Shown here piece after piece: positions 23,574-52,577 of a stretch of 64,000 bases of DNA (its first letter is position 1; the number at the start of each line of letters is the position of its first letter). Below the pieces are notes generated by a model that had not been told where the DNA came from, made no database searches, and saw only the letters and a list, made by a program, of their open reading frames with translations. The DNA comes from Myxococcota bacterium (GTDB lineage Bacteria; Myxococcota_A; UBA9160): positions 22,044 through 86,043 of the forward strand of contig JAWOLJ010000066.1 of assembly GCA_033853555.1 (NCBI GenBank). Direction: 5' to 3'. A program made the translations under genes and the position numbers.

Positions 23574-23678
23574 CCCCGATCCCGAAAGACCCCGTCCATC
23601 CGCCGTCTCCGGGGTGGAACCCTCGTCACGCGAGATCGGACCGTCGAGCCGCGCGCTCCGACGCGCACGGCGGCCGGG

Positions 23679-23897: not shown

Positions 23898-24021
23898 GGG
23901 ACCACGCTCCCCGGGCCGAGGATAGCGAGCACCGGCGCGCCGTGCCGGGCGAGAGCGGGCGGCCCGGGAGGCTCCCTCTCGCGCTCTCCCCTCCGGCCAG
24001 TACCCACTACACCGACTGGGG

Positions 24022-30206: not shown

Positions 30207-30223
30207 CGCGCGAGGGGAGGCGC

Positions 30224-38673: not shown

Positions 38674-39336
38674 TCAGCCGCGGCGAGCCGGCTCCGCGCC
38701 GGTGAGCTCGCGCACGAGCGTCGCCTCCAGGAGCGCGAGCTCACCCTCGGGCAGCCGCGCCCTGGGGCCGGCCAGCAGGAGCGACGCCGCGAGGCCCACC
38801 AGCACCGAGACGGTGTAGTGCTGGAGCAGGCGGTGGCGCGCCGGGGAGAGCGGCGCGTCGTGGAACAGCCGTCGCCACACCGCGTCGAAGGCGCGGAACA
38901 TCCGGGTCTGCCACGACGGCTCCCGGGCCGGATGCAGGTCCGTTCGACGCAAGTGGTCGAGCAGGATCTCGAAGGTCGAGGCGTACTCGCGACTCGCGAA
39001 GTGCTGCCACGCCCGCGCCACGAACAGGGACGCTCGCTCCGCGAGCCCGATTCCCTCCCTTGGCACGTCCGCCAGGCGCAGCTCGAAGCGGCGGAAGGAG
39101 TCCTCGAGCACCGCCATCAGGATGCCGTCCTTGTCGCCGAAGTGGTGCTGCACCGCACCCCAGGTGACGCCGGCGCGGCGGGTGATCTCGCTGGCGGTGG
39201 TGCGCTGGAAGCCCCGCTCGGCGATGCAGTCGATGGTGGCGGCGAGGATGCGCGCGCGCGTCTCCGCGGTGCGCTCGGCGTGGGAGCGCCGCGCGCGACG
39301 CCGCGTCGCAGGACGAACACGGATCGCCTGGGACAC
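38674..39336 (-). CDS. TetR/AcrR-family transcriptional regulator
   Basis: GTG 39336; ...RRSHAERTAETRARILAATIDCIAERGFQRTTASEITRRAGVTWGAVQHHFGDKDGIL (TetR HTH). Divergent from the aldA-cyp51 operon. Confidence 0.8.
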   Translation of the reverse strand: MSQAIRVRPATRRRARRSHAERTAETRARILAATIDCIAERGFQRTTASEITRRAGVTWGAVQHHFGDKDGILMAVLEDSFRRFELRLADVPREGIGLAERASLFVARAWQHFASREYASTFEILLDHLRRTDLHPAREPSWQTRMFRAFDAVWRRLFHDAPLSPARHRLLQHYTVSVLVGLAASLLLAGPRARLPEGELALLEATLVRELTGAEPARRG

Positions 39337-39385
39337 CGCTACTCCGAGCCGAGGCCGGCCACGCCGGCGCCGAGTGCCATCGCAC

Positions 39386-39434
39386 CAGGCTATCACGTTT
39401 GCATTGCGCTCGAAATGTAAATGGTGGTACAAGG
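39386..39434 (+). promoter_or_regulatory. Conserved AT-rich operator/promoter element, copy 1 (upstream of aldA-cyp51 operon)
   Basis: CAGGCTATCACGTTTGCATTGCGCTCGAAATGTAAATGGTGGTACAAGG: imperfect about 40-bp palindrome (CTAYCAC...GTGRTAG; TTTGCAT...ATGNAAA). About 42/49 identical to copy 2 at 46798-46848. Confidence 0.5.
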
Positions 39435-39514
39435 GATGCGCCGGGGCGGCGGCTGGCAGGCCTCCCCGATCCCCCGGGTCGGCCCCCCGATCCGCGAGAC
39501 GTGAGGATGCTCCC

Positions 39515-40993
39515 ATGGCACTCGCCGCGCTCGAGCCCGAGACCCGCAACCTGATCGACGGCCGGCTGGTGCCGGCCTCGAACGGCGCGACCTTCGAGAA
39601 CGTGAACCCGGCCACCGAGGAGGTGCTCGGGAGCTGCGCCGACGGCACGCGCGAGGACATGCTGTCGGCGATCGCGGCCGCCCGGCGCGCCTTCGACGAG
39701 ACCCGGTGGTCCACCGATGCCGTCTTTCGCAAGCGCTGCCTGCTCCAGATCGCCGACGCGCTCAAGGCGGCGCGCGAGAAGCTGCGCTCGATCGTGGTGC
39801 ACGAGGCCGGCTCGCCGGTCCTCCTCACCTACAGCGTCCAGTGTGACTCCACGATCGACCAGTTCGGCTACTGGGCCGAGCTCGCGGGGAGCTACGAGTA
39901 CGAGCGGCCGATGCGCGAGATCCGCTTCCTCGGGCAGCCGCAGCGCCGCCTGCTGCGACGAGAAGCCACCGGTGTGGTGGGAGCCATCACGCCCTGGAAC
40001 TTTCCGCTCTACCTGAATCTCGCGAAGCTCGGGCCGGCCCTCGCCGCCGGCAACACCGTCGTGCTGAAGCCGGCGCCGGACACGCCCTGGTCGGCCACCG
40101 CCCTGGGCCGCCTGATCGCCGAGCAGACCGAGATCCCGCCGGGCGTGGTGAACGTGGTCGCCTCGTCGGAGCACGCGGTGGGCGAGCTCCTGGCGAGCGA
40201 TCCGCGCGTCGATCTCGTGACCTTCACCGGCTCGACCGCCACCGGGCGGCGGGTCATGGAGTGCGCCTCGGCGACGGTGAAGCGCGTCTTCCTGGAGCTC
40301 GGCGGAAAGTCCGCGAACGTGATCCTCGACGACGCCGACTTTGCGAAGGCCCTCGGCGGCGCCGTCACGGTCTGCACTCACGGCGGACAGGGCTGCGCGC
40401 TCACCACGCGGCTGCTCCTGCCGCGTTCGCGCTACGCCGAGGGCATCGAGATCGTGAAGCGCGCCTTCGAGAGCTGGAGCTACGGAGACCCGACGGATCC
40501 GCGGAACCTCCAGGGGCCCCAGGTGAGCCGGCGCCAGCAGGAGCGGGTGCTCGCCTACATCGAGAAAGGGAAGCGCGAGGGCGCGCGCCTCCTGACGGGC
40601 GGCGGCCGACCTTCGCGCCTGCCGAAGGGCTTCTACGTGGAGCCGACGCTCTTCGCCGACGTCGATCCGGACTCCACGATCGCGCAGGAGGAGATCTTCG
40701 GGCCGGTCCTGGCGGTGATCCCCTTCGACGGCGACGACGACGCGGTGCGGATCGCGAACCGCTCGATCTACGGCCTCTCGGGCGCGGTCACCAGCGCGAG
40801 CGAGGAGCGCGCCCTCGGCGTGGCGCGGCGCATCCGCAGCGGGACGCTCTCGGTGAACGGCGGGATGTGGTTCGACGTCGACACGCCCTTCGGCGGCTAC
40901 CGCCAGAGCGGAGTCGGACGCGAGAACGGGCTCCTCGGCTTCGAGGAGTACCTGGAGACCAAGGTGATCGCGCTCCCCGGGAGCCCGCGATGA
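39515..40993 (+). CDS. NAD(P)-dependent aldehyde dehydrogenase
   Basis: ...ITPWNFPLYLNLAKLGPALAAGNTVVLKPA..., FLELGGKSANVI (Glu active site), ...GGQGCALTTR (Cys). ATG 39515 with GAGGA upstream. Confidence 0.9.
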   Translation: MALAALEPETRNLIDGRLVPASNGATFENVNPATEEVLGSCADGTREDMLSAIAAARRAFDETRWSTDAVFRKRCLLQIADALKAAREKLRSIVVHEAGSPVLLTYSVQCDSTIDQFGYWAELAGSYEYERPMREIRFLGQPQRRLLRREATGVVGAITPWNFPLYLNLAKLGPALAAGNTVVLKPAPDTPWSATALGRLIAEQTEIPPGVVNVVASSEHAVGELLASDPRVDLVTFTGSTATGRRVMECASATVKRVFLELGGKSANVILDDADFAKALGGAVTVCTHGGQGCALTTRLLLPRSRYAEGIEIVKRAFESWSYGDPTDPRNLQGPQVSRRQQERVLAYIEKGKREGARLLTGGGRPSRLPKGFYVEPTLFADVDPDSTIAQEEIFGPVLAVIPFDGDDDAVRIANRSIYGLSGAVTSASEERALGVARRIRSGTLSVNGGMWFDVDTPFGGYRQSGVGRENGLLGFEEYLETKVIALPGSPR

Positions 40994-42396
40994 CGACGGC
41001 GGACGTCGCGATGGGAACGGCCACGGGAAGCGCGACGCAGCGGGGCGGCGCCGCGCCGCCGCGGGTCTCCGGGGGCCTGCCGTGGCTCGGGCACCTGCTC
41101 GAGCTCCGGCGCCAGCCGATCGAGCTGCTGAGCCGCGCGCGCGCCGAGTGCGGCGAGGTGGCGGAGCTGCGCCTGGCGCGCCTGCCACTGGTGATGCTCT
41201 ACGGCGAGGAGGCCCAGGAAGCCTTCTTTCGCGCGCCCGACGAGCAGCTCGACCAGGCCGCCGCCTATCCCTTCATGAAGCCGATCTTCGGCGAGGGCGT
41301 GGTGTTCGACGCCCCGCCCGAACGGCGCAAGGAGGCGCTGCGCAACCAGTCGCTGCGCGACAAGCAGATGCGCGGGCACGCGGAGGTGATCGCGGCGGAG
41401 ACCGAGCGCATGGTGAGTCGCTTCGGCGCTGGAGGAGAGATCGATCTCCTGGACTTCTTCGCCGAGCTCACGATCTACACCTCGAGCGCGTGCCTGATCG
41501 GGAAGCCCTTCCGCGAGGAGCTGACCCCCGAGTTCTCGAGGGTCTACCACGATCTCGAGCGCGGCACCGACGCCATTGCCTACGTGAACGCGCATCTCCC
41601 GATCCCGTCCTTCCGCAAGCGCGACCGGGCGCGCAGGCGGCTGGTCGAGCTGGTCACCGAGATCATGCAGGCGCGCGCCCGCTCCGGAGAGAGCAAGGGA
41701 GACCTGCTGGACGTGCTGATGCGCGTGCGCCTCGAAGACGGTCGCCCGCGCTTCTCGGCCGACGAGATCACGGGGATGTTCATCTCCATGATGTTCGCGG
41801 GCCACCACACCACCTCGGGGACCGCGGCCTGGACCCTGATCGAGCTGCTGCGAAACCCCGGCCAGATGGCCGGCGTGACGGCCGAGCTGGATCGCCTCTT
41901 CGCCGACGGCGGCGAGGTCTCCTACCACGCGCTGCGCGAGATCCCCCGGCTCGAGAATGCGATCAAGGAGACGCTGCGGCTCCATCCCCCGCTGATCCTG
42001 CTGCTGCGCAAGGTGGCCGAGGACTTCCACTACAAGGGCTGGACCATCGCGGCGGGAAAGCTCGTCGGGACCTCACCCGCCGTCTCGAACCGGATCCCGG
42101 AGTACTTCCCCGATCCCGATCGCTTCGATCCCGGGCGCTACCTGGAGGGGCGCGAGGAGGACGTGCGACATCCCTTCGGCTGGATTCCCTTCGGAGCGGG
42201 ACGGCATCGCTGCGTGGGCGCAGCCTTCGCGATGATCCAGCTCAAGGCGATCTTCAGCGTGCTGCTGCGGCGCTTCGAGCTCGAGCTGGCGCAGCCGCCC
42301 GCGAGCTACCGCAACGACCACTCCAAGATGGTGGTGCAGCTCGCCCAGCCGTGCCGCGTGCGCTACCGCCGGCGCGCCGCCCGAGCGGGCGCATGA
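40990..42396 (+). CDS. cyp51: Cytochrome P450 CYP51, sterol 14-alpha-demethylase
   Basis: Near-colinear with M. tuberculosis CYP51 (from memory): AYPFMKPIFGEGVVFDAPPERRKE, EIDLLDFFAELTIYTSSACLIGK, RFSADEITGMFISMMFAGHHTTSGTAAWTLIEL, ETLRLHPPLILLLR, WIPFGAGRHRCVGAAFAMIQLKAIFSVLLRRFELELAQPPASYRNDHSKMVVQLAQPCRVRYRRR. Confidence 0.9.
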   Translation: MTTADVAMGTATGSATQRGGAAPPRVSGGLPWLGHLLELRRQPIELLSRARAECGEVAELRLARLPLVMLYGEEAQEAFFRAPDEQLDQAAAYPFMKPIFGEGVVFDAPPERRKEALRNQSLRDKQMRGHAEVIAAETERMVSRFGAGGEIDLLDFFAELTIYTSSACLIGKPFREELTPEFSRVYHDLERGTDAIAYVNAHLPIPSFRKRDRARRRLVELVTEIMQARARSGESKGDLLDVLMRVRLEDGRPRFSADEITGMFISMMFAGHHTTSGTAAWTLIELLRNPGQMAGVTAELDRLFADGGEVSYHALREIPRLENAIKETLRLHPPLILLLRKVAEDFHYKGWTIAAGKLVGTSPAVSNRIPEYFPDPDRFDPGRYLEGREEDVRHPFGWIPFGAGRHRCVGAAFAMIQLKAIFSVLLRRFELELAQPPASYRNDHSKMVVQLAQPCRVRYRRRAARAGA

Positions 42397-42590
42397 AGAT
42401 CCGGGTCGACCTCGATCTGTGTCAGGGGCACGGCGTCTGCGCCGAGGAGGCCCCGGAGGTGTTCGCGCTGGACGAGCAGAGATCCAAGGTGGTGCTGCGC
42501 GACCCGAGCCCGCCGGAGGCGCAGCGCGCGCGGGTGAAGGCCGCCGTCCGCTACTGCCCCACGCATGCCCTCGCGCTGCTCGAGGACTGA
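42393..42590 (+). CDS. 3Fe-4S/4Fe-4S ferredoxin, P450 redox partner (Rv0763c-like)
   Basis: MKIRVDLDLCQGHGVCAEEAPEVFALDEQ...AAVRYCPTHALALLED: CxxHxxC...CP ferredoxin. ATGA overlap with cyp51 stop. Confidence 0.85.
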   Translation: MKIRVDLDLCQGHGVCAEEAPEVFALDEQRSKVVLRDPSPPEAQRARVKAAVRYCPTHALALLED

Positions 42591-42617
42591 ACCGCCCACC
42601 CCTCACCCGGAGGCCCC

Positions 42618-43184
42618 ATGCCCGCCTTCCCCCGTGCCGAGCTCGAAGAGATGATCCGCCGCTTCGTGGCCGTGAACGACGAGTGCGGCCAGAGCGGGAG
42701 CTGGGACGCGCTCGGCCGCTTCTATGCCGAGGACGCGATCTACTCCTGGAACCTCGGCCCGAAGTTCGAGTTCGTGGCGCGCGGCCGCGAGGAGATCCGC
42801 AAGTGGGTGCTCGGCACCGAGATGGCGGGCCTCGACAAGTGGGTCTACCCGTACGTGCGTACGCTGGTGGACGACCAGAAGGGCGAGGTGATCGGCATCT
42901 GGCGGCAGATCGCCCCGGTGAAGGGCGAGGACGGCAAGCCCATCGAGATCGCCGGCACCGGCGGCTCCTGGTTCCGCTACGCCGGCAACTGGCAGTGGAG
43001 CTGGCAGCGGGACTTCTTCGATCACGGGAACGCGGGCGCGGTCTTCCTGGAGCTGCTGCAGAAGGGGCGTCTCTCGCCGGCGATGCAGGAGCGCCTGAAG
43101 CGCGGCTCGAAGCAGCCGGGCTGGGTGCCGCGCGAGAGCTTCGACTGGTACGCCAGCATCCAGGAGCGCGAGGACCGCGGGTGA
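42618..43184 (+). CDS. NTF2-like/SnoaL-like family protein
   Basis: ...EEMIRRFVAVNDECGQSGSWDALGRFYAEDAIYSWNLGPKFEFVARGREEIRKWVLG: cone-shaped alpha+beta barrel pattern (ketosteroid-isomerase-like fold superfamily). Confidence 0.65.
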   Translation: MPAFPRAELEEMIRRFVAVNDECGQSGSWDALGRFYAEDAIYSWNLGPKFEFVARGREEIRKWVLGTEMAGLDKWVYPYVRTLVDDQKGEVIGIWRQIAPVKGEDGKPIEIAGTGGSWFRYAGNWQWSWQRDFFDHGNAGAVFLELLQKGRLSPAMQERLKRGSKQPGWVPRESFDWYASIQEREDRG

Positions 43185-44035
43185 GCTCGGCCGGAAGACC
43201 GCTCGCCGCGGCGACGCTCGCGGGCGTCGCGCGCGCCGACGGGGCCCGCTGGTTCGCCGCCGATCCGGGCAAGGCCTGGGGCGAGAAGTTCTTCCTGCTC
43301 TACACGCCGGTCTGGATGACCGGCATGGCGCTCATGATGAAGAGCGGCGCGGCGGGGCGCTGGGGCGATCGGGCCCAGCTCGCCGCCCACCTCGCGCTCT
43401 GGCTTCCGCTCCTGCTGCTCCCGCCCCTGCTCCACTCCGAGCGCGCGCTCGGCCGCAGCTTCACGGAGAGCTACGCCTTCAAGGCGTTTCTCTGGCTCGG
43501 CGTCTTCTCCTTCGTCGGGAGCTACTTCGGGAGCGAGTACTTCTTCGACGTCCTCGGGATGGTCTACCGCTTCGCCAATCTCCACTGGACCATGGACTCG
43601 GCGCTCCTCGGATCGGGCGAGCAGCACGTCCCGCTCATCATGTACTTCTCCGCGCACTTCTACTTCGTGAGCTACCACACCGCCGCGGTGGTGGTGATGC
43701 GTCGCGTGCGGAGCTCGCGGCTCTTCGTGCATCCGCTGGTCTGGGCACTGGTGATCCTCGGCTGCGCCTACGGCTTCGCCTGGGCCGAGACCTTCTTCAT
43801 GACCGACCCCTCGATCGCGGCGCAGTTCACCTACCGCGACGTGCCGCGCATGCTGCGCTGGGGCTCGCTCGTCTACGCGCTCTACTTCGTGGTGAGCTTC
43901 CCCATGTTCTACCGGCTGGACGAGGCTCCCGGCGAGCGCTGGCCCCTGCGCCGCGTCGTCCTGGAGGCCCTCGCGGCCGGCATGCTCGTGCTCTTCCTGC
44001 TCGACTTCGCGACCCACGCGATCGGGCGGCTCTGA
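43181..44035 (+). CDS. Seven-TM membrane protein resembling cycloeucalenol cycloisomerase (CPI1) family
   Basis: GTG 43181, GTGA overlap. Motifs WGEKFFLLYTPVWMTG, FKAFLWLGVFSFVGSYFGSEYFFDVLGMVYRF, VSYHTAAVVVMRR, LVYALYFVVSFPMFYRLDE. As I recall them, plant CPI1 has WGELFFLFYTP..., VFSYVGNYFWTHYFFKVLGA..., FYAIYFIVSFPMFFRMDE. No His boxes. Confidence 0.7.
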   Translation: MSSAGRPLAAATLAGVARADGARWFAADPGKAWGEKFFLLYTPVWMTGMALMMKSGAAGRWGDRAQLAAHLALWLPLLLLPPLLHSERALGRSFTESYAFKAFLWLGVFSFVGSYFGSEYFFDVLGMVYRFANLHWTMDSALLGSGEQHVPLIMYFSAHFYFVSYHTAAVVVMRRVRSSRLFVHPLVWALVILGCAYGFAWAETFFMTDPSIAAQFTYRDVPRMLRWGSLVYALYFVVSFPMFYRLDEAPGERWPLRRVVLEALAAGMLVLFLLDFATHAIGRL

Positions 44036-44059
44036 GTGGCGAGTCGGGAGGAGAGGACC

Positions 44060-44863
44060 GTGCGCGACATCCTTGGCTACGCGGGGAAGCGGGTGGTGGT
44101 GAGCGGCGCGGCGTCCGGCATGGGCGCCGCCACGGCCCGGACGCTGGTGGATCTCGGCGCCGAGGTCCATGCCCTCGACCTGAAGCCGATCCAGGTCCCG
44201 GTGGCCCGGGCGCTGGAGGTGGACCTGCGTCGCCGCGAGTCGATCGACGCGGCGCTGGCGCATCTTCCCGAGCGCGTGGACGCCCTCTTCAACTGCGCCG
44301 GGCTCCCCGGCGCACCGTTCTCGAACCTCGACACCATGCTGGTGAACTTCGTGGGCCTGCGGCACCTGACCGAGGGCGTGCTGTCGCGCCTGCCATCGGG
44401 TGGAGCGGTCGCGAGCATCACCTCGGTCGCCGGCATGGGCTGGCGCAAGAACCTCGAGAACGTCAGGGCGCTCTGCGGCACCAAGGACTTCGACGAGGCG
44501 CGCGCCTGGTGCGAGGCGCATCCCAAGGAGGCCAACGGCTATCTCTTCTCCAAGCAGTGCATCATCTGGTACACGATGCAGCGCGCGGTCGAGCTGGTGG
44601 CTCGCGGGATCCGGATGAACTGCATCTCTCCCTCGCCCACCGACACGCCCATGCTCCCGGCGTTCCACGCCCAGGTGAATCGCGAGTTCATCGACAAGCA
44701 CTTCCTGGCCCCGATCGGACGCAACGCCACCCCGGAGGAGATGGCCGAGCCCTTGGTGCTCCTGAACTCGAACGCCGCGCGCTTCGTCTCGGGCGTGAAC
44801 CTGTTCGTGGACTGGGGCTATCTGGCCGAGCTCGAGGTCGGGGCGCGGCCCGCGCTGCTCTGA
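44060..44863 (+). CDS. Short-chain dehydrogenase/reductase (SDR), atypical short N-terminus
   Basis: GTG 44060 after AGGAG (alternative GTG 44036 directly abutting CPI stop). ...GKRVVVSGAASGMGAATARTLVDLGAEV..., NCAG..., YLFSKQCIIWYT (YxxxK), ...ISPSPTDTPML. Confidence 0.8.
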   Translation: MRDILGYAGKRVVVSGAASGMGAATARTLVDLGAEVHALDLKPIQVPVARALEVDLRRRESIDAALAHLPERVDALFNCAGLPGAPFSNLDTMLVNFVGLRHLTEGVLSRLPSGGAVASITSVAGMGWRKNLENVRALCGTKDFDEARAWCEAHPKEANGYLFSKQCIIWYTMQRAVELVARGIRMNCISPSPTDTPMLPAFHAQVNREFIDKHFLAPIGRNATPEEMAEPLVLLNSNAARFVSGVNLFVDWGYLAELEVGARPALL

Positions 44864-44876
44864 GCCGACGCCGGCC

Positions 44877-45251
44877 CTAGCGCCCCGGCGCGCTCTTGTC
44901 GCGCTCGGCGCGGAGCGCGCGCACGACCTGGCTCGCCACGGCCGCCACCGGCCAGCCCGCATAGTGCGCCACGTGGAGGATCAGCTCGTCGATCTCGACG
45001 TCGCTGAGCTGCTTCTGCCGCATCGCCGCGCCGAGATGGAGCTTCAGCGTCGCCTCGTGTCCGAGCTGCATCAGCACCACCAGCGTTGCGATGCGGCGCT
45101 CCTTCAAGCCGAGCCCGGGTCGGGCCCACACGTCGGCGAAGAGGTGGTCCACGGTGCTGTCCATGAAGGGCTCGCTCGGGATGGCCGGTGGTCGGAAGCC
45201 CATCACCCGGTCGAACCACTCGAGGCCCTTCGCGCGCTGCTCCTCGCTCAT
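44877..45251 (-). CDS. Carboxymuconolactone decarboxylase (CMD/AhpD-like) family protein
   Basis: MSEEQRAKGLEWFDRVMGFRPP...DHLFADVWARPGLGLKERRIATLVVLMQLGHEATLKLHLGAAMRQKQLSDVEIDELILHVAHYAGWP: CMD domain. ATGA overlap with upstream gene. Confidence 0.75.
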   Translation of the reverse strand: MSEEQRAKGLEWFDRVMGFRPPAIPSEPFMDSTVDHLFADVWARPGLGLKERRIATLVVLMQLGHEATLKLHLGAAMRQKQLSDVEIDELILHVAHYAGWPVAAVASQVVRALRAERDKSAPGR

Positions 45252-45916
45252 CGGCTTCCACCACGCTTCTCGACCGGTCCGAACTCGAAGCTCGCGGCGG
45301 TCGAGAGCCGCGTGATCTTCGTGATGGCCGCCTCCTCCGCGGGCGGCGCATCGTCCTCGATCGTCACCTCCCAGTGACAGACGGGCTTGCGGTCCTTGGG
45401 ATCGCGCGGGGGCCGGTGCACCGGGCGGCACTTCGCGCGCGGGTTCACCGCCTGCATCGTGGCGTCGAAGGTCGGATCCTCGATGTGATGGCACATCGAG
45501 ACCACTCGCGCCTCGCCCCAGGGCTCGACGTCGGCGAGGGCTCCGCAGTGGTCGAGCCAGAAGTATCCCTTCTTCGGGCTCACCACCTCGTAGTGCACGT
45601 CCATGTACTGGTGGGGAAAGCCCGGATCGAGCTGCAGCGACTTGAAGATCGAGGCCACGTCGTCGCCCTCGATCTTCATCGCCTTGCGGATGCGCTGGGT
45701 GTAGACCGGCGAGGCGCCGCGCCACTCCTCGATCGCGAGCTCCTCCATCGCCTTCGCCCCGAAGCGCTGCAGGATGGCGGGCATGATGGCGCGATCGAGC
45801 AGGTGGGCGGCGAGCATGAGCTCGCGGCACAGCGTGACCAGCGCCTCCTTCGAGAAGTCCTCGAGACGCAGGTCCGGATCGAATTCCCCGCTGTAGTCCT
45901 CGCGTTCTTCGAACAC
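45248..45916 (-). CDS. Hypothetical Cys/His-rich protein (222 aa), translationally coupled to the CMD gene
   Basis: MFEEREDYSGEFDPDLRLEDF...YFWLDHCGALAD...VSMCHHIEDPTF...KPVCHWEV; possible metal-binding; no family recognised. Confidence 0.55.
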   Translation of the reverse strand: MFEEREDYSGEFDPDLRLEDFSKEALVTLCRELMLAAHLLDRAIMPAILQRFGAKAMEELAIEEWRGASPVYTQRIRKAMKIEGDDVASIFKSLQLDPGFPHQYMDVHYEVVSPKKGYFWLDHCGALADVEPWGEARVVSMCHHIEDPTFDATMQAVNPRAKCRPVHRPPRDPKDRKPVCHWEVTIEDDAPPAEEAAITKITRLSTAASFEFGPVEKRGGSR

Positions 45917-45929
45917 CCTCGCTCCTCCT

Positions 45930-46793
45930 CTAGCGGCGCCGCGGATCCTCGAGCCCGTACACGCGGGCCATCAGCTGCGAGGCCAGCGCGGTGCCGGGCA
46001 GCGCGATGCCGCACTGCCGCGCCAGCGCCAGCGTCGCGGCGAGATCCTTCTCGGCGATCTCGACGAAGCCGCGCAGCAGCCCCTGGAAGCCCTCGCTGGT
46101 GCGGCTCGCCTCGGGAGCCTTGTGGAGCGCCAGGAACGCGCGCATCGGCTCGGTCAGGTTGCCGTTCGAGCCCGTCACCTCCTCCAGCACCGCCGGGGAG
46201 AGGCCCGCGGCGCGGGCCAGCAGGCTCGCCTCGTAGGCGGAGATCCACGCGAGGTAGGTCATCAGGTTGTTGCAGAGCTTCGTCTTGCAGCCGCTCCCGA
46301 GCGGGCCGGTGTGAACGACCTTCTTGGCAAAGCAGTCGAGCAGCGGGCGCGCACGCTCCAGCGCCGCGGCCGCGCCGCCGGCCATCACCGTGAGCGTGCC
46401 CTGGGCCGCGCCGGCCGCGCCGCCCGTGATGCAGGCATCGATCACCTCGACGCCGCAGCGCTGCGCCTCGACCGCCACCTCCTCCACCGTCGCCGGCTGC
46501 ACCGTGCTGTGGATCGCGACGACGGTGCCCCGCGCCGCGCCGGCGAGGACCCCGTCGGCGCCGCGCATCACGCTGCGCACGTCCGCGTCGTCGCGCACGC
46601 AGACGCCGATCGCGTCGCTCGCCGCCGCCACCTCGCGGGGTGTCGCGGCGCCTCGCGCGCCGGCGGCCTCGAGCTGGCGCACGCGCTCGGGGAGCGCGTC
46701 GCAGACGGTCGTGGGGAGGCCAGCCGCCACCAGCCGCTTCGCCATCGGCAAGCCGATGTTCCCCAGCCCGATGAAGCCCGCGCGGATCCCCAT
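45930..46793 (-). CDS. NAD(P)-binding 3-hydroxyisobutyrate/6-phosphogluconate dehydrogenase-like oxidoreductase
   Basis: MGIRAGFIGLGNIGLPMAKRLVAAG (Rossmann GxGxxG) ...GTLTVMAGG...ALERARPLLDCFAKKVVHTGPLGSGCKTKL: HIBADH family. Confidence 0.8.
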   Translation of the reverse strand: MGIRAGFIGLGNIGLPMAKRLVAAGLPTTVCDALPERVRQLEAAGARGAATPREVAAASDAIGVCVRDDADVRSVMRGADGVLAGAARGTVVAIHSTVQPATVEEVAVEAQRCGVEVIDACITGGAAGAAQGTLTVMAGGAAAALERARPLLDCFAKKVVHTGPLGSGCKTKLCNNLMTYLAWISAYEASLLARAAGLSPAVLEEVTGSNGNLTEPMRAFLALHKAPEASRTSEGFQGLLRGFVEIAEKDLAATLALARQCGIALPGTALASQLMARVYGLEDPRRR

Positions 46794-46797
46794 GTGC

Positions 46798-46848
46798 CCA
46801 GGCTACCACATTTGCATTGCGCTCGTTATGGAAATGGTGATAGCGTGG
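46798..46848 (+). promoter_or_regulatory. Conserved AT-rich operator/promoter element, copy 2 (between HIBADH-like gene and second P450)
   Basis: CCAGGCTACCACATTTGCATTGCGCTCGTTATGGAAATGGTGATAGCGTGG; see copy 1. Confidence 0.5.
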
Positions 46849-46855
46849 TCGGCCG

Positions 46856-48070
46856 ATGGACGCCGCCGCCCACCCGCAGGCGCCGCTCGAGTTCGACCCC
46901 TACGCCTACGCGGTGCACGAGGATCCCTATCCCTTCTACGCGCGCCTGCGCGCCGAGGCGCCGCTCTATCGCAACGAGCGGCTCGGCTTCTGGGCGCTCT
47001 CGCGCCACGCGGACGTGCTGGCGGCGTTCCGCGACTGGGAGCACCTCTCCAACCGTCACGGCGTGTCGCTCGACGTCGACGCCTTCCACGAGCGGGCCGA
47101 CACCACCATGTCGTTCCTGGCGATGGATCCGCCACGCCACGACCGGCTGCGGGCCCTGGTCTCGCGCGGCTTCACGCCGCGGCGCGTGGCGGAGCTGGAG
47201 CCCCACGTGCGCGCCCTCTCCAGGCGCTATCTCGAGGCGTTCGTGGAGCGAGGAAGCTGCGACTTCATCGGTGACTTCGCGGGCAAGCTTCCGATGGACG
47301 TGGTCAGCGAGATGCTCGGTGTACCGTCCGACGATCGCGCGACGCTCCGCGAGTGGGCGGATCTGGTGGTGCACCGCGAGCCCGGGGTGAACGGGCTCCC
47401 GCCGGCGGCCGCGCAGTCGGCGCTGCGCATGCTGCACTACTTCACCGAGATGCTCGCGGACCGCCGCAAGCAGCCGCGCGACGATCTGACCGGTGCGCTC
47501 ATCGCCGCTGAGCTCGAGGGCGATCGATTGACCGACCACGAGATCATCGGCTTCCTCTTCCTGATGGTGGTGGCGGGAAACGAGACCACCACCAAGCTCC
47601 TCGGCAACGCCCTGTACTGGCTGTGGCGGCATCCCTCGGAGCGCGAGCGGCTGCGCGCCGATCCAGCCCTGGTCCCGCGCTGGGTCGAGGAGACGCTGCG
47701 CTACGACAACTCGACCCAGGCGCTCGCGCGCCTCGCCGCCGCCGACGTCGAGCTCCACGGCCAGAAGGTCCGCGCCGGCGATCGCGTGGTGCTGCTGGTG
47801 GGCTCGGCCAACCGCGACGAGCGCGCCTTCGTCCATCCGGATCGCTACGACCTGCTGCGCGACACCAGCGCCTCCCTCTCGTTCGGACAGGGCGTCCACT
47901 TCTGCCTCGGCGCCTCGCTCGCACGGCTCGAGGCCCGGGTGTCGCTGGACGAGGTCTGGCGGCACATCCCCGACTACGAGATCGACGCGGAGAGCGCGGT
48001 CCGGGTCCACTCGGTGAACGTGCGCGGCTTCGCGAAGCTTCCGCTGGTGTTCGGTCGATCGGTCCGATGA
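46856..48070 (+). CDS. Cytochrome P450 (second, non-CYP51; CYP123/125-like class)
   Basis: ...FLFLMVVAGNETTTKLLGNAL (I-helix AGxETT), ETLRYD (ExxR), FGQGVHFCLGASLARLE (haem Cys loop). Confidence 0.9.
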   Translation: MDAAAHPQAPLEFDPYAYAVHEDPYPFYARLRAEAPLYRNERLGFWALSRHADVLAAFRDWEHLSNRHGVSLDVDAFHERADTTMSFLAMDPPRHDRLRALVSRGFTPRRVAELEPHVRALSRRYLEAFVERGSCDFIGDFAGKLPMDVVSEMLGVPSDDRATLREWADLVVHREPGVNGLPPAAAQSALRMLHYFTEMLADRRKQPRDDLTGALIAAELEGDRLTDHEIIGFLFLMVVAGNETTTKLLGNALYWLWRHPSERERLRADPALVPRWVEETLRYDNSTQALARLAAADVELHGQKVRAGDRVVLLVGSANRDERAFVHPDRYDLLRDTSASLSFGQGVHFCLGASLARLEARVSLDEVWRHIPDYEIDAESAVRVHSVNVRGFAKLPLVFGRSVR

Positions 48071-48852
48071 GCGCCGTGCGCGTCGCGATCGTGACGGGCG
48101 CCTCCTCGGGGATCGGCGCGGCGATCGCGCGCGCGCTCGGCGCCCGCGGCTTCGTGGTGGCGCTCGGCGCCCGGCGCACGGAGGAGCTCGCCGCGGTGGC
48201 GAGGCAGGTGGAGGGGGGCGGCGGCCGGGCGGTGGTGCTGCAAGTGGACCTCTCCGATACCGCCTCGCTCGACGCGTTCTTCGACGCCGCCGAGGCCGCC
48301 CTGGGCCCGGTCGACGTTCTGGTGAACAACGCCGGGATCTGCGTGCCCGGCCTGCTCCACGAGATCGATCCGACCGCCGTGCAGCGCGAGCTCGCGGTGA
48401 ATCTCCTGGCGCCGGCGCTCCTGGCGCGACGTGCGATCCGGTCGCTCCTCTCCCGCGATGTGCGGGGAGACCTGATCTGGATCTCGTCCGAGAACGTGGT
48501 GGCGCCACGGCCCTTCCAGCCGGGCTACACCGCCAGCAAGTGGGGTCTCGAGGGCCTCGCCCGCACGCTTCGCCTCGAGCTCGCCGGGACCGGCATTCGC
48601 TCCACCATCGTGCGCCCCGGCCCCACCTTCCCCACCGACTTCGCCCGCGGCTGGGACCCCGCGCTGGTGAAGCGCCTCCTCGAAACCTGGAACGCGCTCG
48701 GCCTCCAGCGCCACCTCCAATGGCTCCCGGCCGAGAGCGTCGCGGAGGCGGTGGCGGCGGTGGTCACCGCACCGCCGGGTACGCACTTCGACATCGTCGC
48801 GCTCGGCCCCGAATCTCCCCCCGAGCTGAGGATCGTCGGGACCGCGCGCTGA
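48067..48852 (+). CDS. Short-chain dehydrogenase/reductase (SDR)
   Basis: MSAVRVAIVTGASSGIGAAIARAL (TGxxxGIG), NNAG, ...YTASKWGLEGLARTLRLEL (YxxxK). ATGA overlap with P450 stop. Confidence 0.85.
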   Translation: MSAVRVAIVTGASSGIGAAIARALGARGFVVALGARRTEELAAVARQVEGGGGRAVVLQVDLSDTASLDAFFDAAEAALGPVDVLVNNAGICVPGLLHEIDPTAVQRELAVNLLAPALLARRAIRSLLSRDVRGDLIWISSENVVAPRPFQPGYTASKWGLEGLARTLRLELAGTGIRSTIVRPGPTFPTDFARGWDPALVKRLLETWNALGLQRHLQWLPAESVAEAVAAVVTAPPGTHFDIVALGPESPPELRIVGTAR

Positions 48853-48872: not shown

Positions 48873-48989
48873 GCCCGGCCCCACGACGCGGCGCGACGCC
48901 CGAGGCTCCGCTTGACAGCGGCGTCCGGCCTCGTGCACAACTCGCGCCAGAGCGCGCGCGGGGCGGCGCTCCTGCGTGTCGGGGAGAAC

Positions 48990-49751
48990 ATGCAATACGA
49001 GATCCGTTCCATGTCGTTCGGCGAGATCCTGGACACGGGGTTTCGGATCACCCGCAATCACTTCGTTCCGTTGGTCGGCCTGGCGGCGCTGGTGCACGTT
49101 CCGGCCGCGGTGATCAACGGCGTCCTGGGGCAGTCGGTGCAGCGCGGCTCCATGGCGGCGCTCGTCCTCAGTGGCACGTTCAGCCTCGTGCTGTTCGGGC
49201 TGCTCAATCCTTTCGTCCAGGTCGCCATCACCCGCATCATCGGCGGGTTCTATCAGGGCGAGGCGCCCAGCATCGGCGAGGGCTTCCGCGAGGCCTTCCG
49301 GATCCTCTTCCCTCTGCTCGGAACCTCCCTGCTGGGCGGGCTCCTGACGATCGGGGGGATGATCCTGCTGGTGATCCCGGGGCTCTGGGTGATGTTCGGC
49401 CTGGTGATCCTCTCGCCGGTGATGGTGCTCGAGCACCGCTTCGGACGAGCAGGCATTCGCCGTAGCCTCGATCTGATGAAGGGCGAGCGGCTGCGTGCCT
49501 TCGGGATCCTCCTCCTGGTGAGCCTCATCGTGGTCGTTCTGGGCTCGGCCTTCGGCCTGGCCAGCATGGTCCTTCCGTACGCCGGCTCCGTCGCCGCAGG
49601 CCTGGCCCAAGCGGTCGGCACCGCGTTCGGCGCGGCCGTGCTGGTGGTGCTCTACTTCGAGATCCGCTGCCGCAAGGAGGGCTTCGAGATCGAGCATCTG
49701 GCCCGCCTGGTGCAGCAGGGCACCGGTCCCGCCCGCACCGCGCTCTCGTGA
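48990..49751 (+). CDS. Hypothetical polytopic membrane protein, first gene of the MoxR/DUF58 operon
   Basis: ATG 48990 after GGGGAGAA; MQYEIRSMSFGEILDTGFRITRNHFVPLVGLAALVHVPAAVING... about 6 TM, 253 aa. Confidence 0.65.
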   Translation: MQYEIRSMSFGEILDTGFRITRNHFVPLVGLAALVHVPAAVINGVLGQSVQRGSMAALVLSGTFSLVLFGLLNPFVQVAITRIIGGFYQGEAPSIGEGFREAFRILFPLLGTSLLGGLLTIGGMILLVIPGLWVMFGLVILSPVMVLEHRFGRAGIRRSLDLMKGERLRAFGILLLVSLIVVVLGSAFGLASMVLPYAGSVAAGLAQAVGTAFGAAVLVVLYFEIRCRKEGFEIEHLARLVQQGTGPARTALS

Positions 49752-50374
49752 TCGATCCTTCGAGGCTGGCCGATGCCCGTGTGCAGGAGCTCGCACGCTC
49801 CATTCTCGCCCGCGAGGAGTACACGCGCTTCCGGCCGGTGGACCTGGAGGCCTGGCGAGCGTGGCTCGAGCGGATCGCCGACGCCTTCCGCTGGCTCTCC
49901 TACCTCTCCGTCGAGCGGCCGCTCCTGTGGGTGATCCTGCTCTTCGGCCTGCTGGCGCTCGCGAGCCTGCTCCTGGCCCATCTCGTCTACTCGATGCGCG
50001 CGGCGATGAGAGCCAGCGCTCCGACGCCGCGACGGCCGGTGTCGCTGGAGTCGGACCTGCGGGGAGAGGCGGCACGGCTGGTCGCGGCGGACCGCTTCCT
50101 CGACGCGGCCCACGTGCTGCAGCTCGCCTGTCTGCGCCAGCTCGTCCAGGCCGGTGTCCTCGAGCTGCGGCGCCACGATCCGAACCCGGTGCTGCGTTCG
50201 CAGGTCGCGAGCTCGGCGCTGCCGGATGCGGAACGACGGGAGCTCCTGTCGCTCCTCGACCGGCTCGAGACGCGCTGGTTCCGCGATCGGGCACCGGATC
50301 CGACGGACCGGGCGCTCTTCGAAGCCTGGCACCGTCTGCTCGAGCGGCTGACGGCCCTCGGTGCCGCTGCATGA
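49748..50374 (+). CDS. DUF4129 domain protein (TM + C-terminal DUF4129)
   Basis: GTGA overlap; ...SYLSVERPLLWVILLFGLLALASLLLAHLV (TM) ...AARLVAADRFLDAAHVLQLACLRQLVQAGVLELRRHDPNPVL...ETRWFRDRAPDPTD. Confidence 0.65.
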   Translation: MIDPSRLADARVQELARSILAREEYTRFRPVDLEAWRAWLERIADAFRWLSYLSVERPLLWVILLFGLLALASLLLAHLVYSMRAAMRASAPTPRRPVSLESDLRGEAARLVAADRFLDAAHVLQLACLRQLVQAGVLELRRHDPNPVLRSQVASSALPDAERRELLSLLDRLETRWFRDRAPDPTDRALFEAWHRLLERLTALGAAA

Positions 50375-51618
50375 GCCGGTCGGCGCGCGTCTCGGGGCTC
50401 GCGGCGTTCTTCGTGCTCCTCCTGGTGGGCCTCTGGTCGCAGACCGACACGCGGAAGCTGAGCGCGACCAGCTTCGGAAAAGTGCCGGTCGGAGAGGGCG
50501 CCATCTACGACCTGCTGCGGGAGCTCGGGCTCCCCGTCGCCCGCAGCTTCGCGCCGCTCGAGCGCCTGCCTGCCGAAGCCACGGTCTGGTGGATCGAGCC
50601 GAGTGGCGTCGGCTCGTCGCCGGATGAACTCGAAGCGGCGTTCCAGAAGCTCGGCGGCCGGCGACCCGACGAGCCGAGCGCCCTGGCCGGCGAGCGGCTG
50701 GCGGGCTGGATCGAGTCCGGCGGGAGCGCGGTCGTCCTGCTGCCTCGCTCGACCGGCGACGCGCCCGCGCTGACGCTCGCAGGTGTCGAGCTACCGGCTC
50801 GCCGCCCGCTCGGCGCGCCGGCGGCGAAGGGCGACGCTCCCGAGGCCGGGCCCGGGGCTCACCCGCGGCGGCCGGCGTCCGGGAAGGAGCAGCGCTCGCT
50901 CGTGGAGGGAGGCCTCGTCCCGGTGCCGCGCACGCTGCTGCTGCCGCGCCCGACGGTCTTCGTGGCCGACGCCGCCCACGCCGGGGACTTCGCCGTGATC
51001 GCGCGACTGGAAGGCCAGCCCTTCGTGCTGGAGCGCCGGATCGGCAAGGGACGCCTGGTGGTCGCGGCCGACGCGCGCTTCGTGTGGAACGACTGGCTCG
51101 ACCGGGCGGACTCGGCGCTCCTCGCCTTCGACCTGGTTCGCCGCTACGGAACGCCGTGGATCGACGAGCACGAGCATGGGATCACGACCCCCCGCAGCGC
51201 GGTCTCCTATCTCGTGCGCTCGCCCGCGCTGGCCTTCTTCGTGGGCCTCGCGCTCCTCGTGCTGACGATCGCGTGGAGGGGCGCCGCCGACCCTCCGCGC
51301 CGGGTGGCCGAGCGCGATCCGGGGGCGCCCACGCTCGAGAGCTACGTGGACTCGCTGGCGGGGCTCTACGCCGCCACGGGCGATCACCCGCGCGTGCTCG
51401 AGCGATCCCGCGAGGTCGCGGCGCGCCGGCTGCGCCGCGGCTTCGGAATGCCGCCGGACACGCCCATGGAGCGGCTCCTCGAGCGGCTCGCGAGGCGGCG
51501 CCGGCTCGCTCGCGAGGGGCTCTCCGTCTTCGCGGAGGGCGCCAACGTGCGCACAGCCACGGAGCTCGAGCGCGCCATCGTGGTGCTCGATCGCTTCGTC
51601 GAGGAGGCCCTCTCGTGA
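50371..51618 (+). CDS. DUF4350-like protein (N-terminal TM, large periplasmic domain, C-terminal TM)
   Basis: ATGA overlap; MSRSARVSGLAAFFVLLLVGLW... and second TM YLVRSPALAFFVGLALLVLTIAW. Confidence 0.65.
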   Translation: MSRSARVSGLAAFFVLLLVGLWSQTDTRKLSATSFGKVPVGEGAIYDLLRELGLPVARSFAPLERLPAEATVWWIEPSGVGSSPDELEAAFQKLGGRRPDEPSALAGERLAGWIESGGSAVVLLPRSTGDAPALTLAGVELPARRPLGAPAAKGDAPEAGPGAHPRRPASGKEQRSLVEGGLVPVPRTLLLPRPTVFVADAAHAGDFAVIARLEGQPFVLERRIGKGRLVVAADARFVWNDWLDRADSALLAFDLVRRYGTPWIDEHEHGITTPRSAVSYLVRSPALAFFVGLALLVLTIAWRGAADPPRRVAERDPGAPTLESYVDSLAGLYAATGDHPRVLERSREVAARRLRRGFGMPPDTPMERLLERLARRRRLAREGLSVFAEGANVRTATELERAIVVLDRFVEEALS

Positions 51619-52577
51619 GCGAATCGCCGCGAATCGACGTGAGCCCGGTGACGGAGCTGTACCGCGACCTCCACGATGGCGTCTCGGCCGTCGTGATCGG
51701 CCAGGAGCAGGCCGTCCGGCTCGCCGTTGTCACGCTTCTGTGTCGAAGCCACAGCCTGATCGAGGGCGTCCCCGGCGTGGCCAAGACGCTCCTGGTGCGG
51801 GCGCTCGCCGCCTGTCTCGGGATCCGCTTCGGCCGCATCCAGTTCACGCCCGACCTCATGCCGAGCGACATCGTCGGCACGCAGGTCCTGGATCCCGCCC
51901 GCGGCGAGCTGCGTTTTCGCCAGGGTCCGCTCTTCACGGACCTCCTGCTGGCCGACGAGATCAACCGCGCCTCGGCGAAGACGCAGGCGGCGCTGCTCGA
52001 GGCGATGCAGGAGCGCGCGGCGACCGTCGATGGCGTTCGCCACGAGCTCGGGCGGGACTTCACGGTCTTCGCCACCCAGAACCCCGTGGAGCAGGAAGGG
52101 ACCTACCCGCTCCCGGAGGCGGAGCTCGACCGGTTCTTGTTCCGGATCGTGATCGACTATCCGACGGCGGCCGACGAGCGGTCGCTCCTGGCCCGTCACC
52201 ATGCGGAGGACGCCGCGCCGCCGGTGCCCGCGCGCGTGGTCTCCGTCGACGCGCTCGAGGCGGCGCGCTCCTGCGCGCGCAGCGTGGTCGTGCGGGAGGA
52301 GATCCTGGCCTACGTATCGGACCTGGTGCGCGCCACGCGAGGCGATCTCCAGTTCGCCCTCGGCGGCTCCCCGCGTGCCGGAGTGCTCCTGGTGCGGGCG
52401 GCGAAGGCCCATGCCGCGCTCGCGGGCCGCGACTTCGTGCTGCCGGAGGACGTCCAGGCCTCGTGGCTCCCCGCGCTCCGCCACCGCGTGGTGCTCGAGC
52501 CGTCGGCGGAGGTGGAGGGGGTGACCCCCGACGAGGCCCTGCGCAGGACGCTCGAGAGCGTGACGGTCCCGCGGTGA
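51615..52577 (+). CDS. MoxR-family AAA+ ATPase
   Basis: ...VIGQEQAVRLAVVTLLCRSHSLIEGVPGVAKTLLVRALAA (Walker A GxxGxxKT), LLLADEINRASAKTQAALLEAMQER (Walker B/sensor), NPVEQEGTYPLPEAELDRF. GTGA overlap. Confidence 0.9.
   Translation: MSESPRIDVSPVTELYRDLHDGVSAVVIGQEQAVRLAVVTLLCRSHSLIEGVPGVAKTLLVRALAACLGIRFGRIQFTPDLMPSDIVGTQVLDPARGELRFRQGPLFTDLLLADEINRASAKTQAALLEAMQERAATVDGVRHELGRDFTVFATQNPVEQEGTYPLPEAELDRFLFRIVIDYPTAADERSLLARHHAEDAAPPVPARVVSVDALEAARSCARSVVVREEILAYVSDLVRATRGDLQFALGGSPRAGVLLVRAAKAHAALAGRDFVLPEDVQASWLPALRHRVVLEPSAEVEGVTPDEALRRTLESVTVPR

Follow-up and report, generated by a model that had tools for sequence, protein, structure and literature searches.

The DNA analysed here is a 64,000-nucleotide stretch (the window; G+C about 72%) of a Myxococcota contig, and its subject is a cluster of 12 genes centred on a cytochrome P450 assigned to CYP51, the sterol 14α-demethylase family. 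Genes were called with a third-position GC (GC3) frame plot together with a log-odds caller, raw lists of open reading frames being crowded with spurious frames at high G+C. GC3 analysis resolved 12 genes between positions 38674 and 48852 (Table 1), and a public annotation of the same DNA (GCA_037916855.1, contig JBAIXD010000288.1) holds the identical 12, the sole difference being the start of SDR1. Reading from the left, a TetR-family gene on the minus strand is followed on the plus strand by an aldehyde dehydrogenase (ALDH), CYP51, a ferredoxin (Fdx), an NTF2/SnoaL-type protein, a seven-transmembrane (7-TM) protein resembling plant cycloeucalenol cycloisomerase (CPI) and the first of two SDR genes, SDR1; then on the minus strand by a carboxymuconolactone-decarboxylase (CMD) family protein, a gene that we call X and a HIBADH-like dehydrogenase; and finally on the plus strand by a second P450 (P450b) and SDR2. 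Pfam detected TetR_N, Aldedh, p450, single-cluster ferredoxin, SnoaL/NTF2, SDR, CMD, NAD_binding_2/11, p450 and SDR domains, and neither the 7-TM protein nor gene X had a Pfam or NCBIfam match. Four-nucleotide start/stop overlaps (ATGA or GTGA) join ALDH to CYP51, CYP51 to the ferredoxin, the NTF2 gene to the 7-TM gene, P450b to SDR2 and CMD to X. The gene composition and every Pfam-detectable label that an earlier note had given from the sequence alone are thereby borne out, as is its ATGA coupling of CYP51 to the ferredoxin.

Table 1. Genes and predicted operators of the CYP51 cluster, with the reciprocal best matches in the M. tuberculosis locus
Feature	Position	Strand	Basis	M. tuberculosis partner	Identity
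TetR-family regulator, 220 aa	38674..39336	-	Pfam TetR_N E = 4e-13; divergent from ALDH-CYP51 operon; public annotation agrees		
Predicted operator palindrome 1, CACGTTTGCATTGCGCTCGAAATGTAAATGGTG, outer arms CTATCAC...GTGGTA	39394..39426	.	TetR/ALDH intergenic region		
Aldehyde dehydrogenase, Rv0768 (AldA) type	39515..40993	+	Pfam Aldedh E = 2e-144; TIGR04284	Rv0768	57%, reciprocal
CYP51 sterol 14α-demethylase, 468 aa	40990..42396	+	ATGA overlaps with ALDH and with Fdx	Rv0764c	63%, reciprocal
Small ferredoxin, 65 aa, CxxHxxC...CP cluster motif	42393..42590	+	Pfam Fer4_15 and Fer4_13; motif CQGHGVC...CP	Rv0763c	48%, reciprocal
NTF2-fold 8,14-Bsr homologue, 188 aa	42618..43184	+	Pfam SnoaL_4 and SnoaL_2	Rv0762c	46%, E = 5e-57, reciprocal
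7-TM CPI1-family protein, 284 aa, GTGA overlap with Bsr	43181..44035	+	homology to plant CPI		
SDR1, 3α-hydroxysteroid dehydrogenase/carbonyl reductase-like	44036..44863 (public start 44060)	+	NCBIfam NF009092/PRK12428		
CMD family protein, Rv0771-like	44877..45251	-	Pfam CMD E = 2e-14	Rv0771	33%, reciprocal
Gene X, Cys-containing domain protein, distantly DUF6125-like, 222 aa	45248..45916	-	family search		
β-Hydroxyacid dehydrogenase (HIBADH-like), Rv0770-like	45930..46793	-	NAD_binding_2 E = 2e-41 and NAD_binding_11	Rv0770	36%, reciprocal
Predicted operator palindrome 2, CACATTTGCATTGCGCTCGTTATGGAAATGGTG	46807..46839	.	HIBADH/P450b intergenic region		
P450b, CYP123-like cytochrome P450, 404 aa	46856..48070	+	56% identity to M. 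tuberculosis cyp123	cyp123 (Rv0766c)	56%, E = 1e-149, reciprocal
SDR2, Rv0765c-like, ATGA overlap with P450b	48067..48852	+	adh_short E = 4e-47	Rv0765c	38%, reciprocal

The central P450 is, beyond reasonable doubt as judged from its sequence, a CYP51. Its best solved relatives are M. tuberculosis Rv0764c (CYP51B1; E = 1e-184, 617 bits, 63–64% identity), then Methylococcus CYP51 (1e-148) and then eukaryotic CYP51s. The top 56 solved-structure matches are all CYP51s, with the next P450 family scoring 120 bits against 617, and the protein passes the P450 nomenclature rule (at least 40% identity to the CYP51 family, best matches CYP51). Non-sterol P450s are thus absent from the best matches, and the earlier assignment stands. 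The signature stretches AYPFMKPIFGEGVVFDA, FAGHHTTSG and FGAGRHRCVG (FGAGRHRCVGAAFA) are present and invariant with the M. tuberculosis enzyme; the family signatures we take to be a B'-helix YxxF/MxxPxFGxxVxFD, a helix-I AGxHTS and a haem loop FGxGRHRCxG.

To place the cluster among its relatives, a CYP51 alignment was scanned against one genome per species and the closest 80 loci were taken; 50 independent loci with at least 20 kb of sequence are referred to below as long loci. The 65-amino-acid ferredoxin is assigned as the redox partner of CYP51, which it adjoins in 49 of the 50 long loci. The two are separate, ATGA-coupled genes in the window, whereas a CPI-bearing sister lineage carries them as a CYP51-ferredoxin fusion of 543–565 aa that resembles Methylococcus capsulatus CYP51fx (L081 7806-9455, L082 7816-9447, L084 7772-9469; also L083, L096 and L102), with fusion and CPI in the same cluster type in all six loci.

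Among the accessory genes, the NTF2 gene is the best understood. Lee, Giner and Welander (J Bacteriol 2026) described the NTF2-family protein encoded beside Cyp51 and ferredoxin as a bacterial 8,14-sterol reductase (8,14-Bsr), which converts the Δ8,14 diene left by CYP51 into a Δ8(14) sterol, and found homologues from M. tuberculosis and an uncultured Sandaracinus to be active (PMC13277303). The paper gives no locus tag for the M. tuberculosis homologue, which we take to be Rv0762c, equating the two by locus position and fold. In an 18-sequence alignment, Y36, Y42, Y77, Y79, D132 and D135 of the window protein correspond to M. capsulatus Y37, Y43, Y78, Y80, D133 and D136, positions probed there by mutagenesis, so that the pocket residues required for activity in M. 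capsulatus (Y37, Y43, Y78 and D133) are all kept. The register of this alignment is confirmed by the Haloechinothrix homologue, which carries Phe (F36) at the first position, as reported (PMC13277303). A search with the Bsr sequence found no solved structure. The Cyp51-ferredoxin-8,14-Bsr clusters of Methylococcaceae, Mycobacteriales and uncultured Myxococcota described in that paper show the same triad in the same order with the same Bsr pocket residues, and the window CYP51 likewise belongs to the ferredoxin-linked bacterial clade; the paper makes no mention of CPI, CYP123, ALDH or a regulator, all of which the window adds.

What CYP51 and the genes around it do in M. tuberculosis, and in other bacteria lacking sterol synthesis, has been debated ever since the genome was sequenced, and the earlier note had likened the cluster to this locus. 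We retrieved the M. tuberculosis-complex locus (L166) and compared the proteins by BLASTP both ways, scoring reciprocal best matches within the two loci. Eight gene pairs were all reciprocal best matches between the two loci (Table 1). They include the NTF2 gene, which the earlier note had treated as anonymous, leaving Rv0762c out of its list. The claim of an identical cast holds for these eight pairs and fails for two others. The window TetR and Rv0767c share a Pfam family and gave no BLASTP match at E < 1e-3, so we regard them as analogous, not demonstrably orthologous, on sequence grounds. Rv0769 has no true counterpart in the window either: SDR1 is only 25% identical to it, and its best match, SDR2 (36%), is already paired with Rv0765c. 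CPI and gene X had no BLASTP partner among the annotated proteins of the M. tuberculosis locus. We also considered gene X as the Rv0767c orthologue, as it sits ahead of P450b in Acidimicrobiales, and rejected this, Rv0767c being a TetR protein and X lacking an M. tuberculosis match.

Synteny is retained in part. Both loci keep the adjacencies CYP51-Fdx-Bsr and P450-SDR, and both have a TetR-family gene and a divergent dehydrogenase/CMD arm, yet the order is rearranged. In M. tuberculosis a single run reads TetR-cyp123-SDR-cyp51-fdx-Rv0762c, whereas in the window ALDH has moved ahead of CYP51 and P450b-SDR2 forms a second unit with its own operator copy. CPI, SDR1 and the DUF6125-like gene X are extra in the window, while in M. 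tuberculosis the locus runs on into adhB and a second NTF2 protein.

This is an old module with a wide distribution among phyla. The 80 closest CYP51 loci come from metagenome-assembled genomes (MAGs) of Myxococcota/"Deltaproteobacteria", from Acidimicrobiales, Pseudonocardiales (Saccharopolyspora, Haloechinothrix) and Nocardia, and from a Mycobacteriaceae MAG. Besides the ferredoxin (49), the 50 long loci contain NTF2 in 46, SDR2 in 42, P450b and the HIBADH-like gene in 41 each, CMD in 36, ALDH in 27 and X in 25. In 37 of them, six or more of the seven accessory genes in common with M. tuberculosis are present, P450b-SDR2 adjacency is kept in 41–42, and CYP51-Fdx-Bsr is contiguous in 46, as it is in the window. 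The arrangement is far beyond chance, and the neighbourhood survey proposed in the earlier note, now run, shows that nearly the whole M. tuberculosis gene set is one conserved, apparently co-regulated module also found in Myxococcota-type genomes. Of the "mobile or ancient" module suggested there, the ancient and widespread part is upheld by these counts; for mobility, no transposase or integrase domain was seen among the window genes scanned, nor were there flanking repeats. Past transfer is nevertheless hard to avoid, since CYP51 identity between phyla is 65–70%. Two contigs labelled uncultured Spirochaetaceae/Spirochaetales (L002, L007) carry a CYP51 70–72% identical to that of the window in a Myxococcota-type TetR or NTF2 context, which suggests mis-binning or lateral transfer. 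In Nocardia sp. CA-107356 (L062) the opposite strand carries, 8–10 kb from CYP51, a P450b-SDR2-Fdx-NTF2-X run in which no CYP51 separates SDR2 from Fdx, and in N. paucivorans (L064) Fdx-NTF2-X follows CYP51 on the same strand about 9.6 kb further downstream; the split CYP51 is either a relocated gene or a second copy.

The 7-TM protein adds an unexpected member to this set. A word-indexed database yielded 586 homologues, many named cycloeucalenol cycloisomerase by JGI (KO-based). An Arabidopsis CPI1 sequence served as bait only, and comparisons used the authentic, source-named plant CPIs so retrieved. The window protein is 36% identical to Arabidopsis lyrata CPI over 258 of 284 residues (E = 3e-43), colinear over the full length, and an alignment of six bacterial with six plant CPIs has 52 invariant columns, among them the charged or polar residues K31, E35, H166, R174, R175, E203, D247, E248 and D275. 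An AlphaFold2 model (pLDDT 82.6, pTM 0.82) has seven long helices (29-55, 63-84, 98-115, 153-177, 185-207, 221-244 and 256-281). By this homology the protein is a true member of the plant CPI family, in agreement with the earlier report of a CPI-like gene embedded in the cluster. It shares with plant CPI1 (EC 5.5.1.9) full-length colinearity, the seven predicted helices and the invariant columns; in contrast to plant CPI1, the bacterial proteins carry a loop insertion of 9 residues and have no counterpart of the C-terminal tail of the plant enzyme, and the window gene lies inside a Bsr-type, M. tuberculosis-like cluster, not beside oxidosqualene cyclase (OSC), SQMO or ERG genes. Bacterial CPI1 homologues have been catalogued among the "Stage 2" steroid genes of myxobacteria, mostly syntenic (Hoshino and Gaucher, PNAS 2021, PMC8237579), and we found no literature report of an assayed bacterial CPI.

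CPI is a recurrent and optional addition: dozens of metagenomic loci have it right behind CYP51 or Bsr. The 80 CYP51 loci suggested at first that it was unique to the window, with even the nearest relative (L001, 85% CYP51 identity) having no CPI between Bsr and SDR1, and look-ups anchored on CPI overturned this. Of 84 CPI loci, 45 have 2.5 kb or more of sequence upstream, and in 37 of these a same-strand CYP51 ends less than 1.5 kb upstream of CPI. The 39 CPI loci with an upstream CYP51 comprise 25 that read CYP51-(Fdx)-Bsr-CPI and 14 that read CYP51-CPI with no Bsr in the locus, the gap being at most 105 nt in 11 of the 14. Two metagenome contigs (L085, L086) repeat the window layout of CPI-SDR1 followed by CMD-X-HIBADH at 86–95% identity, and in three long-contig homologues CPI ends a run in which TetR, CMD and HIBADH-like genes, in that order and pointing left, are divergent from P450, SDR, SDR, ALDH, the CYP51-ferredoxin fusion, NTF2 and CPI. 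Since 14 loci pair CPI with CYP51 in the absence of Bsr, CYP51 is its constant partner, as would be expected of an enzyme that supplies CYP51 with a Δ8 substrate. The repeated recruitment directly behind CYP51 in turn indicates protosterols of the cycloartenol or lanosterol type as the native substrates.

These data also bear on whether the protein has kept the plant reaction. CPI, Δ8/Δ7 isomerase and Δ14 reductase have similar carbocationic intermediates, and a bacterial CPI-like protein might have become a carbocation-type double-bond isomerase that takes the Δ8(14) product of Bsr, or the Δ8,14 diene, to a Δ8 or Δ7 sterol. Its GTGA overlap with Bsr in the window, its place directly after Bsr in 25 loci and the 9-residue insertion would suit such a role. 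The loci in which CYP51 and CPI stand close together with Bsr missing do not, and the invariant columns, which include charged intramembrane residues, argue for conserved chemistry. We consider a new function of this kind quite improbable and retain the ring-opening assignment for the scheme below.

The remaining enzymes carry further links to steroids. P450b is best classed, from its sequence, as CYP123-like; its nearest solved P450s are a CYP125 ancestor, a vitamin D3 hydroxylase, CYP124 and CYP142, a group of terminal-methyl oxidases of sterols or branched lipids and of vitamin D3 hydroxylases, and M. abscessus CYP123 hydroxylates the steroids progesterone and deoxycorticosterone (2025, PMC12799577). 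SDR1 passes the NCBIfam model NF009092/PRK12428 (277 bits, cutoff 242), and its best solved relatives are the 3α-hydroxysteroid dehydrogenase (3α-HSD)/carbonyl reductase 1FJH (4e-23) and 2DKN. Close homologues of SDR1 occur only beside CPI or Bsr in near relatives (L086 93%, L001 84%), and the protein belongs to the 3α-HSD-like family and travels with CPI. The best NCBIfam model for ALDH is TIGR04284 aldehy_Rv0768, at 714 bits just under the 775-bit cutoff. Gene X falls in a largely uncharacterised family with 712 representatives; tandem duplications of about 420 aa are frequent among them, and distant members match DUF6125. A profile of X found no solved homologue. One representative, P0373 (655 aa), is a natural fusion of a HIBADH-like domain with an X domain, which supports a functional coupling of gene X and the HIBADH-like gene.

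Both divergent intergenic regions contain an AT-rich, dyad-symmetric element some 45 bp long, which the earlier note had not mentioned, having the core ATTTRCATTG-N-ATGYAAAT and outer arms CTAYCAC/GTGRTAG. At three mismatches or fewer the palindrome matched twice in the window and never in 100 shuffles, and a repeat finder recovered it independently as an 81-nt repeat, D2. As D2 extends past the operator, an upstream ATG (39380) was considered as the TetR start and rejected as out of frame. An exact 15-mer of the core matched only the same genome, so a relaxed pattern was needed. The motif ATTTNCMTTG-N7-11-ATGNARAT gave 24 matches in the 2.3 Mb of window and loci, against 0–2 in shuffles, and 22 of the 24 are no more than 55 nt from a P450b, HIBADH, TetR or CYP51 start, in Myxococcota-type clusters with and without CPI. 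The palindrome is present in 18 related loci (L001, L005, L009, L011, L013, L014, L017, L018, L020, L022, L027, L028, L081-L084, L096 and L102), with the position between HIBADH and P450b kept in L001, L005, L009, L013, L014, L018, L027, L028, L081-L084, L096 and L102. Thirteen Myxococcota-type CYP51 loci encode TetRs 48–68% identical to that of the window. The palindrome is probably the operator of the cluster's TetR. Its presence at both divergent promoters would place all 12 genes in one inducible regulon and implies induction by a ligand. An analogy may be drawn to the KstR-type TetR regulons of actinobacterial cholesterol catabolism, in which a TetR repressor likewise acts at palindromes in divergent promoters to control steroid-acting P450s and dehydrogenases. 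However, the operator sequence and the regulator subfamily differ (the window TetR matches KstR weakly in NCBIfam, E = 1e-4, far below cutoff), and the window genes appear to be aimed at the methyl groups and ring junction of the sterol nucleus, unlike the side-chain and ring degradation of KstR regulons.

Taken together, we propose that the cluster is a TetR-repressed regulon of two divergons, orthologous to Rv0762c-Rv0771 with two add-on genes, that remodels the tetracyclic core of protosterols (4,4,14-trimethyl sterols), a reading to which we give slightly better than even chances. The sterol-tailoring role that the earlier note had suggested is thus plausible, with support from the CYP51, Bsr and CPI homology and from the steroid-linked accessory genes. 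In the proposed scheme, TetR would repress both divergons until a sterol-like ligand binds, as its homology and context suggest. The CPI-family enzyme would open the 9β,19-cyclopropane ring to give the Δ8 sterol that is the substrate of CYP51, as suggested by homology and by its constant position behind CYP51. CYP51 and the CxxHxxC ferredoxin would then remove the 14α-methyl group to leave the Δ8,14 diene, an activity known for close homologues, and 8,14-Bsr would reduce and isomerise the diene to a Δ8(14) sterol, as known for the M. tuberculosis and Sandaracinus homologues, whose residues are kept here. P450b may next oxidise a methyl group to an alcohol, an SDR the alcohol to an aldehyde and ALDH the aldehyde to an acid, after which the HIBADH-like enzyme could oxidise the 3-hydroxyl to a 3-keto group and the CMD protein, with or without the DUF6125-like protein, decarboxylate the product. 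The likeliest, being the most economical, target of these steps would be the C-4 methyl group or groups: a 4-carboxy-3β-hydroxysterol is a β-hydroxy acid, and its dehydrogenation would give a decarboxylation-prone β-keto acid. SDR1 would presumably interconvert 3-hydroxy and 3-keto groups. The substrates would be sterols taken up from plants, algae or fungi, in scavenging or in a first catabolic stage.

A bolder version holds that the CYP123-like P450, SDR, ALDH, β-hydroxyacid dehydrogenase and CMD protein, joined in many lineages by the DUF6125-like protein, constitute a third machinery for sterol C-4 demethylation, and that with CPI, CYP51/Fdx and Bsr they form a self-contained, TetR-inducible system that trims cycloartenol or lanosterol to 4,14-desmethyl Δ8(14) sterols. 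We offer this as a tentative idea that is more probably wrong than right by a wide measure. The known C-4 demethylation systems, eukaryotic ERG25/ERG26/ERG27 and bacterial SdmA/SdmB, would be alike in outline, proceeding from methyl to carboxylate through oxidation of the 3-hydroxyl, decarboxylation and reduction of the 3-keto group. They use a di-iron or Rieske oxygenase with a 3β-HSD/decarboxylase, whereas the window enzymes come from entirely different families.

Where the sterols would come from was judged from the gene context. The 64-kb window holds no oxidosqualene cyclase, squalene epoxidase, ERG24-27, SdmAB-like or SMT gene, nor is there any biosynthetic context around the CPI loci that lack CYP51. 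The more distant CPI-CYP51 loci neighbour genes for a beta-lactamase-fold protein, an FAD oxidoreductase, a BphC-type extradiol dioxygenase, a GMC oxidoreductase, TetR and a TRAP-transporter binding protein, and the flanks of L082 encode acyl-CoA dehydrogenases, a thiolase and a MaoC hydratase. Myxobacterial MAG groups with Cyp51 but no other sterol genes are on record in the literature. According to the account in PMC13277303 of its refs 66 and 67, a Mycobacterium sp. produces C19 steroids from cycloartenol, 24-methylenecycloartanol and lanosterol, with a lanosterol product bearing an 8(14) double bond; a C19 product entails loss of the 4,4- and 14-methyl groups. An inducible-looking cluster with no sterol-synthesis genes nearby favours scavenging or first-stage catabolism over de novo synthesis, a preference that we hold only moderately; biosynthesis is no more likely than a scavenging or catabolic role.

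Several points weigh against this interpretation, and some of them would suit late de novo biosynthesis, in which the organism's own cyclase, encoded elsewhere, makes cycloartenol and the cluster (CPI, CYP51, Bsr and tailoring enzymes) turns it into membrane sterols in a plant-like manner. Myxococcota are known, and indeed the main bacterial, sterol producers, with cycloartenol synthases occurring in the phylum. Bsr is biosynthetic in methanotrophs (PMC13277303), and the Stage 2 genes in which CPI1 was placed are biosynthetic ones (PMC8237579). In L084 an MMPL/Patched/sterol-sensing protein (19118-20843) lies 8 kb downstream of the CPI cluster and could be a sterol (lipid) transporter. Only 64 kb of the genome is in view, so OSC and SQMO genes may lie elsewhere, and the motif search for OSC, SHC, SQMO, ERG24 and SMT, which found none in the 166 loci (about 2.3 Mb), is weak evidence, its motifs being run with no positive control. 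De novo synthesis sits less well with the inducible look of the TetR/operator control, with the lack of synthesis genes in window and loci, with the catabolic-looking neighbours and with the abundance of the module in Actinomycetota lineages (Acidimicrobiales, Pseudonocardiales and Mycobacteriales) that, to our knowledge, are not sterol producers. We regard it as possible though doubtful.

Other adverse points concern individual steps of the scheme. Foldseek comparison of the CPI model with the PDB returned only noise (E > 2, TM < 0.25), with no solved relative; we know of no experimentally defined catalytic residues in the family, and the activity of the window protein can be predicted as far as homology reaches and no further. 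CPI is present in none of the 80 closest CYP51 loci and so is dispensable for the core function. Plant CPI prefers 4α-monomethyl substrates, which makes the order of the steps uncertain. The P450/SDR/ALDH/HIBADH/CMD set is linked to C-4 demethylation by chemical logic. For the P450 step, the in vitro product of CYP123 may be a 17-hydroxysteroid (PMC12799577).

A further possibility is that the cluster acts on no sterol at all but on a secondary metabolite or another lipid, polycyclic or isoprenoid, and that CYP51 was recruited to that use together with its partners. Lamb et al. raise such recruitment of CYP51 to non-sterol lipid pathways in non-producers, and CYP51 and Bsr are both non-essential in mycobacteria. 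Set against this are five separate pointers to sterols or steroids, namely CYP51 itself (63% identical to a sterol demethylase), Bsr, the CPI family, hydroxylation by CYP123 and the 3α-HSD-like SDR, and we think a non-sterol substrate very unlikely.

Describing the system as "largely undescribed", as the earlier note did, overstates its novelty: the CYP51-Fdx-NTF2 triad was reported in 2026 (PMC13277303), bacterial CPI1 in 2021 (PMC8237579) and the steroid activity of CYP123 in 2025 (PMC12799577). What is new is the recurrent insertion of CPI into the M. tuberculosis-type, Bsr-containing module, the CPI-linked 3α-HSD-like SDR and the conserved predicted operator, together with a testable function for five anonymous enzymes, which would oxidise a methyl group, probably at C-4, and then remove it by decarboxylation. 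If the proposal is true, it would at last give a function to the M. tuberculosis Rv0762c-Rv0771 locus, define a new bacterial route of sterol demethylation and explain the old reports of mycobacteria turning cycloartenol and lanosterol into C19 steroids. The use of steranes as biomarkers of eukaryotes would be touched as well, as would the debate on whether eukaryotic sterol genes have a myxobacterial origin.

Elsewhere in the window, no Rfam family of structured RNA was detected over the 64 kb, and two stretches have no GC3 gene call (23201-24022, 0.8 kb; 30206-31548, 1.3 kb). The cluster ends at 48852, as the earlier note had it; directly downstream begins an unrelated operon (48933-53905) of a membrane protein, an unknown protein, a DUF4350 protein, a MoxR-type AAA ATPase and a DUF58/VWA protein. 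The genome also bears PEP-CTERM, as had been noted, with a sorting-signal protein at 11840-12601 (Pfam E = 3e-6). Positions 25315-30206 encode a molybdopterin oxidoreductase and, after it, a 938-aa protein with the NAD(P)H-nitrite reductase domains Pyr_redox_2, BFD and NIR_SIR and a C-terminal Rieske domain; together they resemble an assimilatory nitrate/nitrite reductase whose small subunit is fused.

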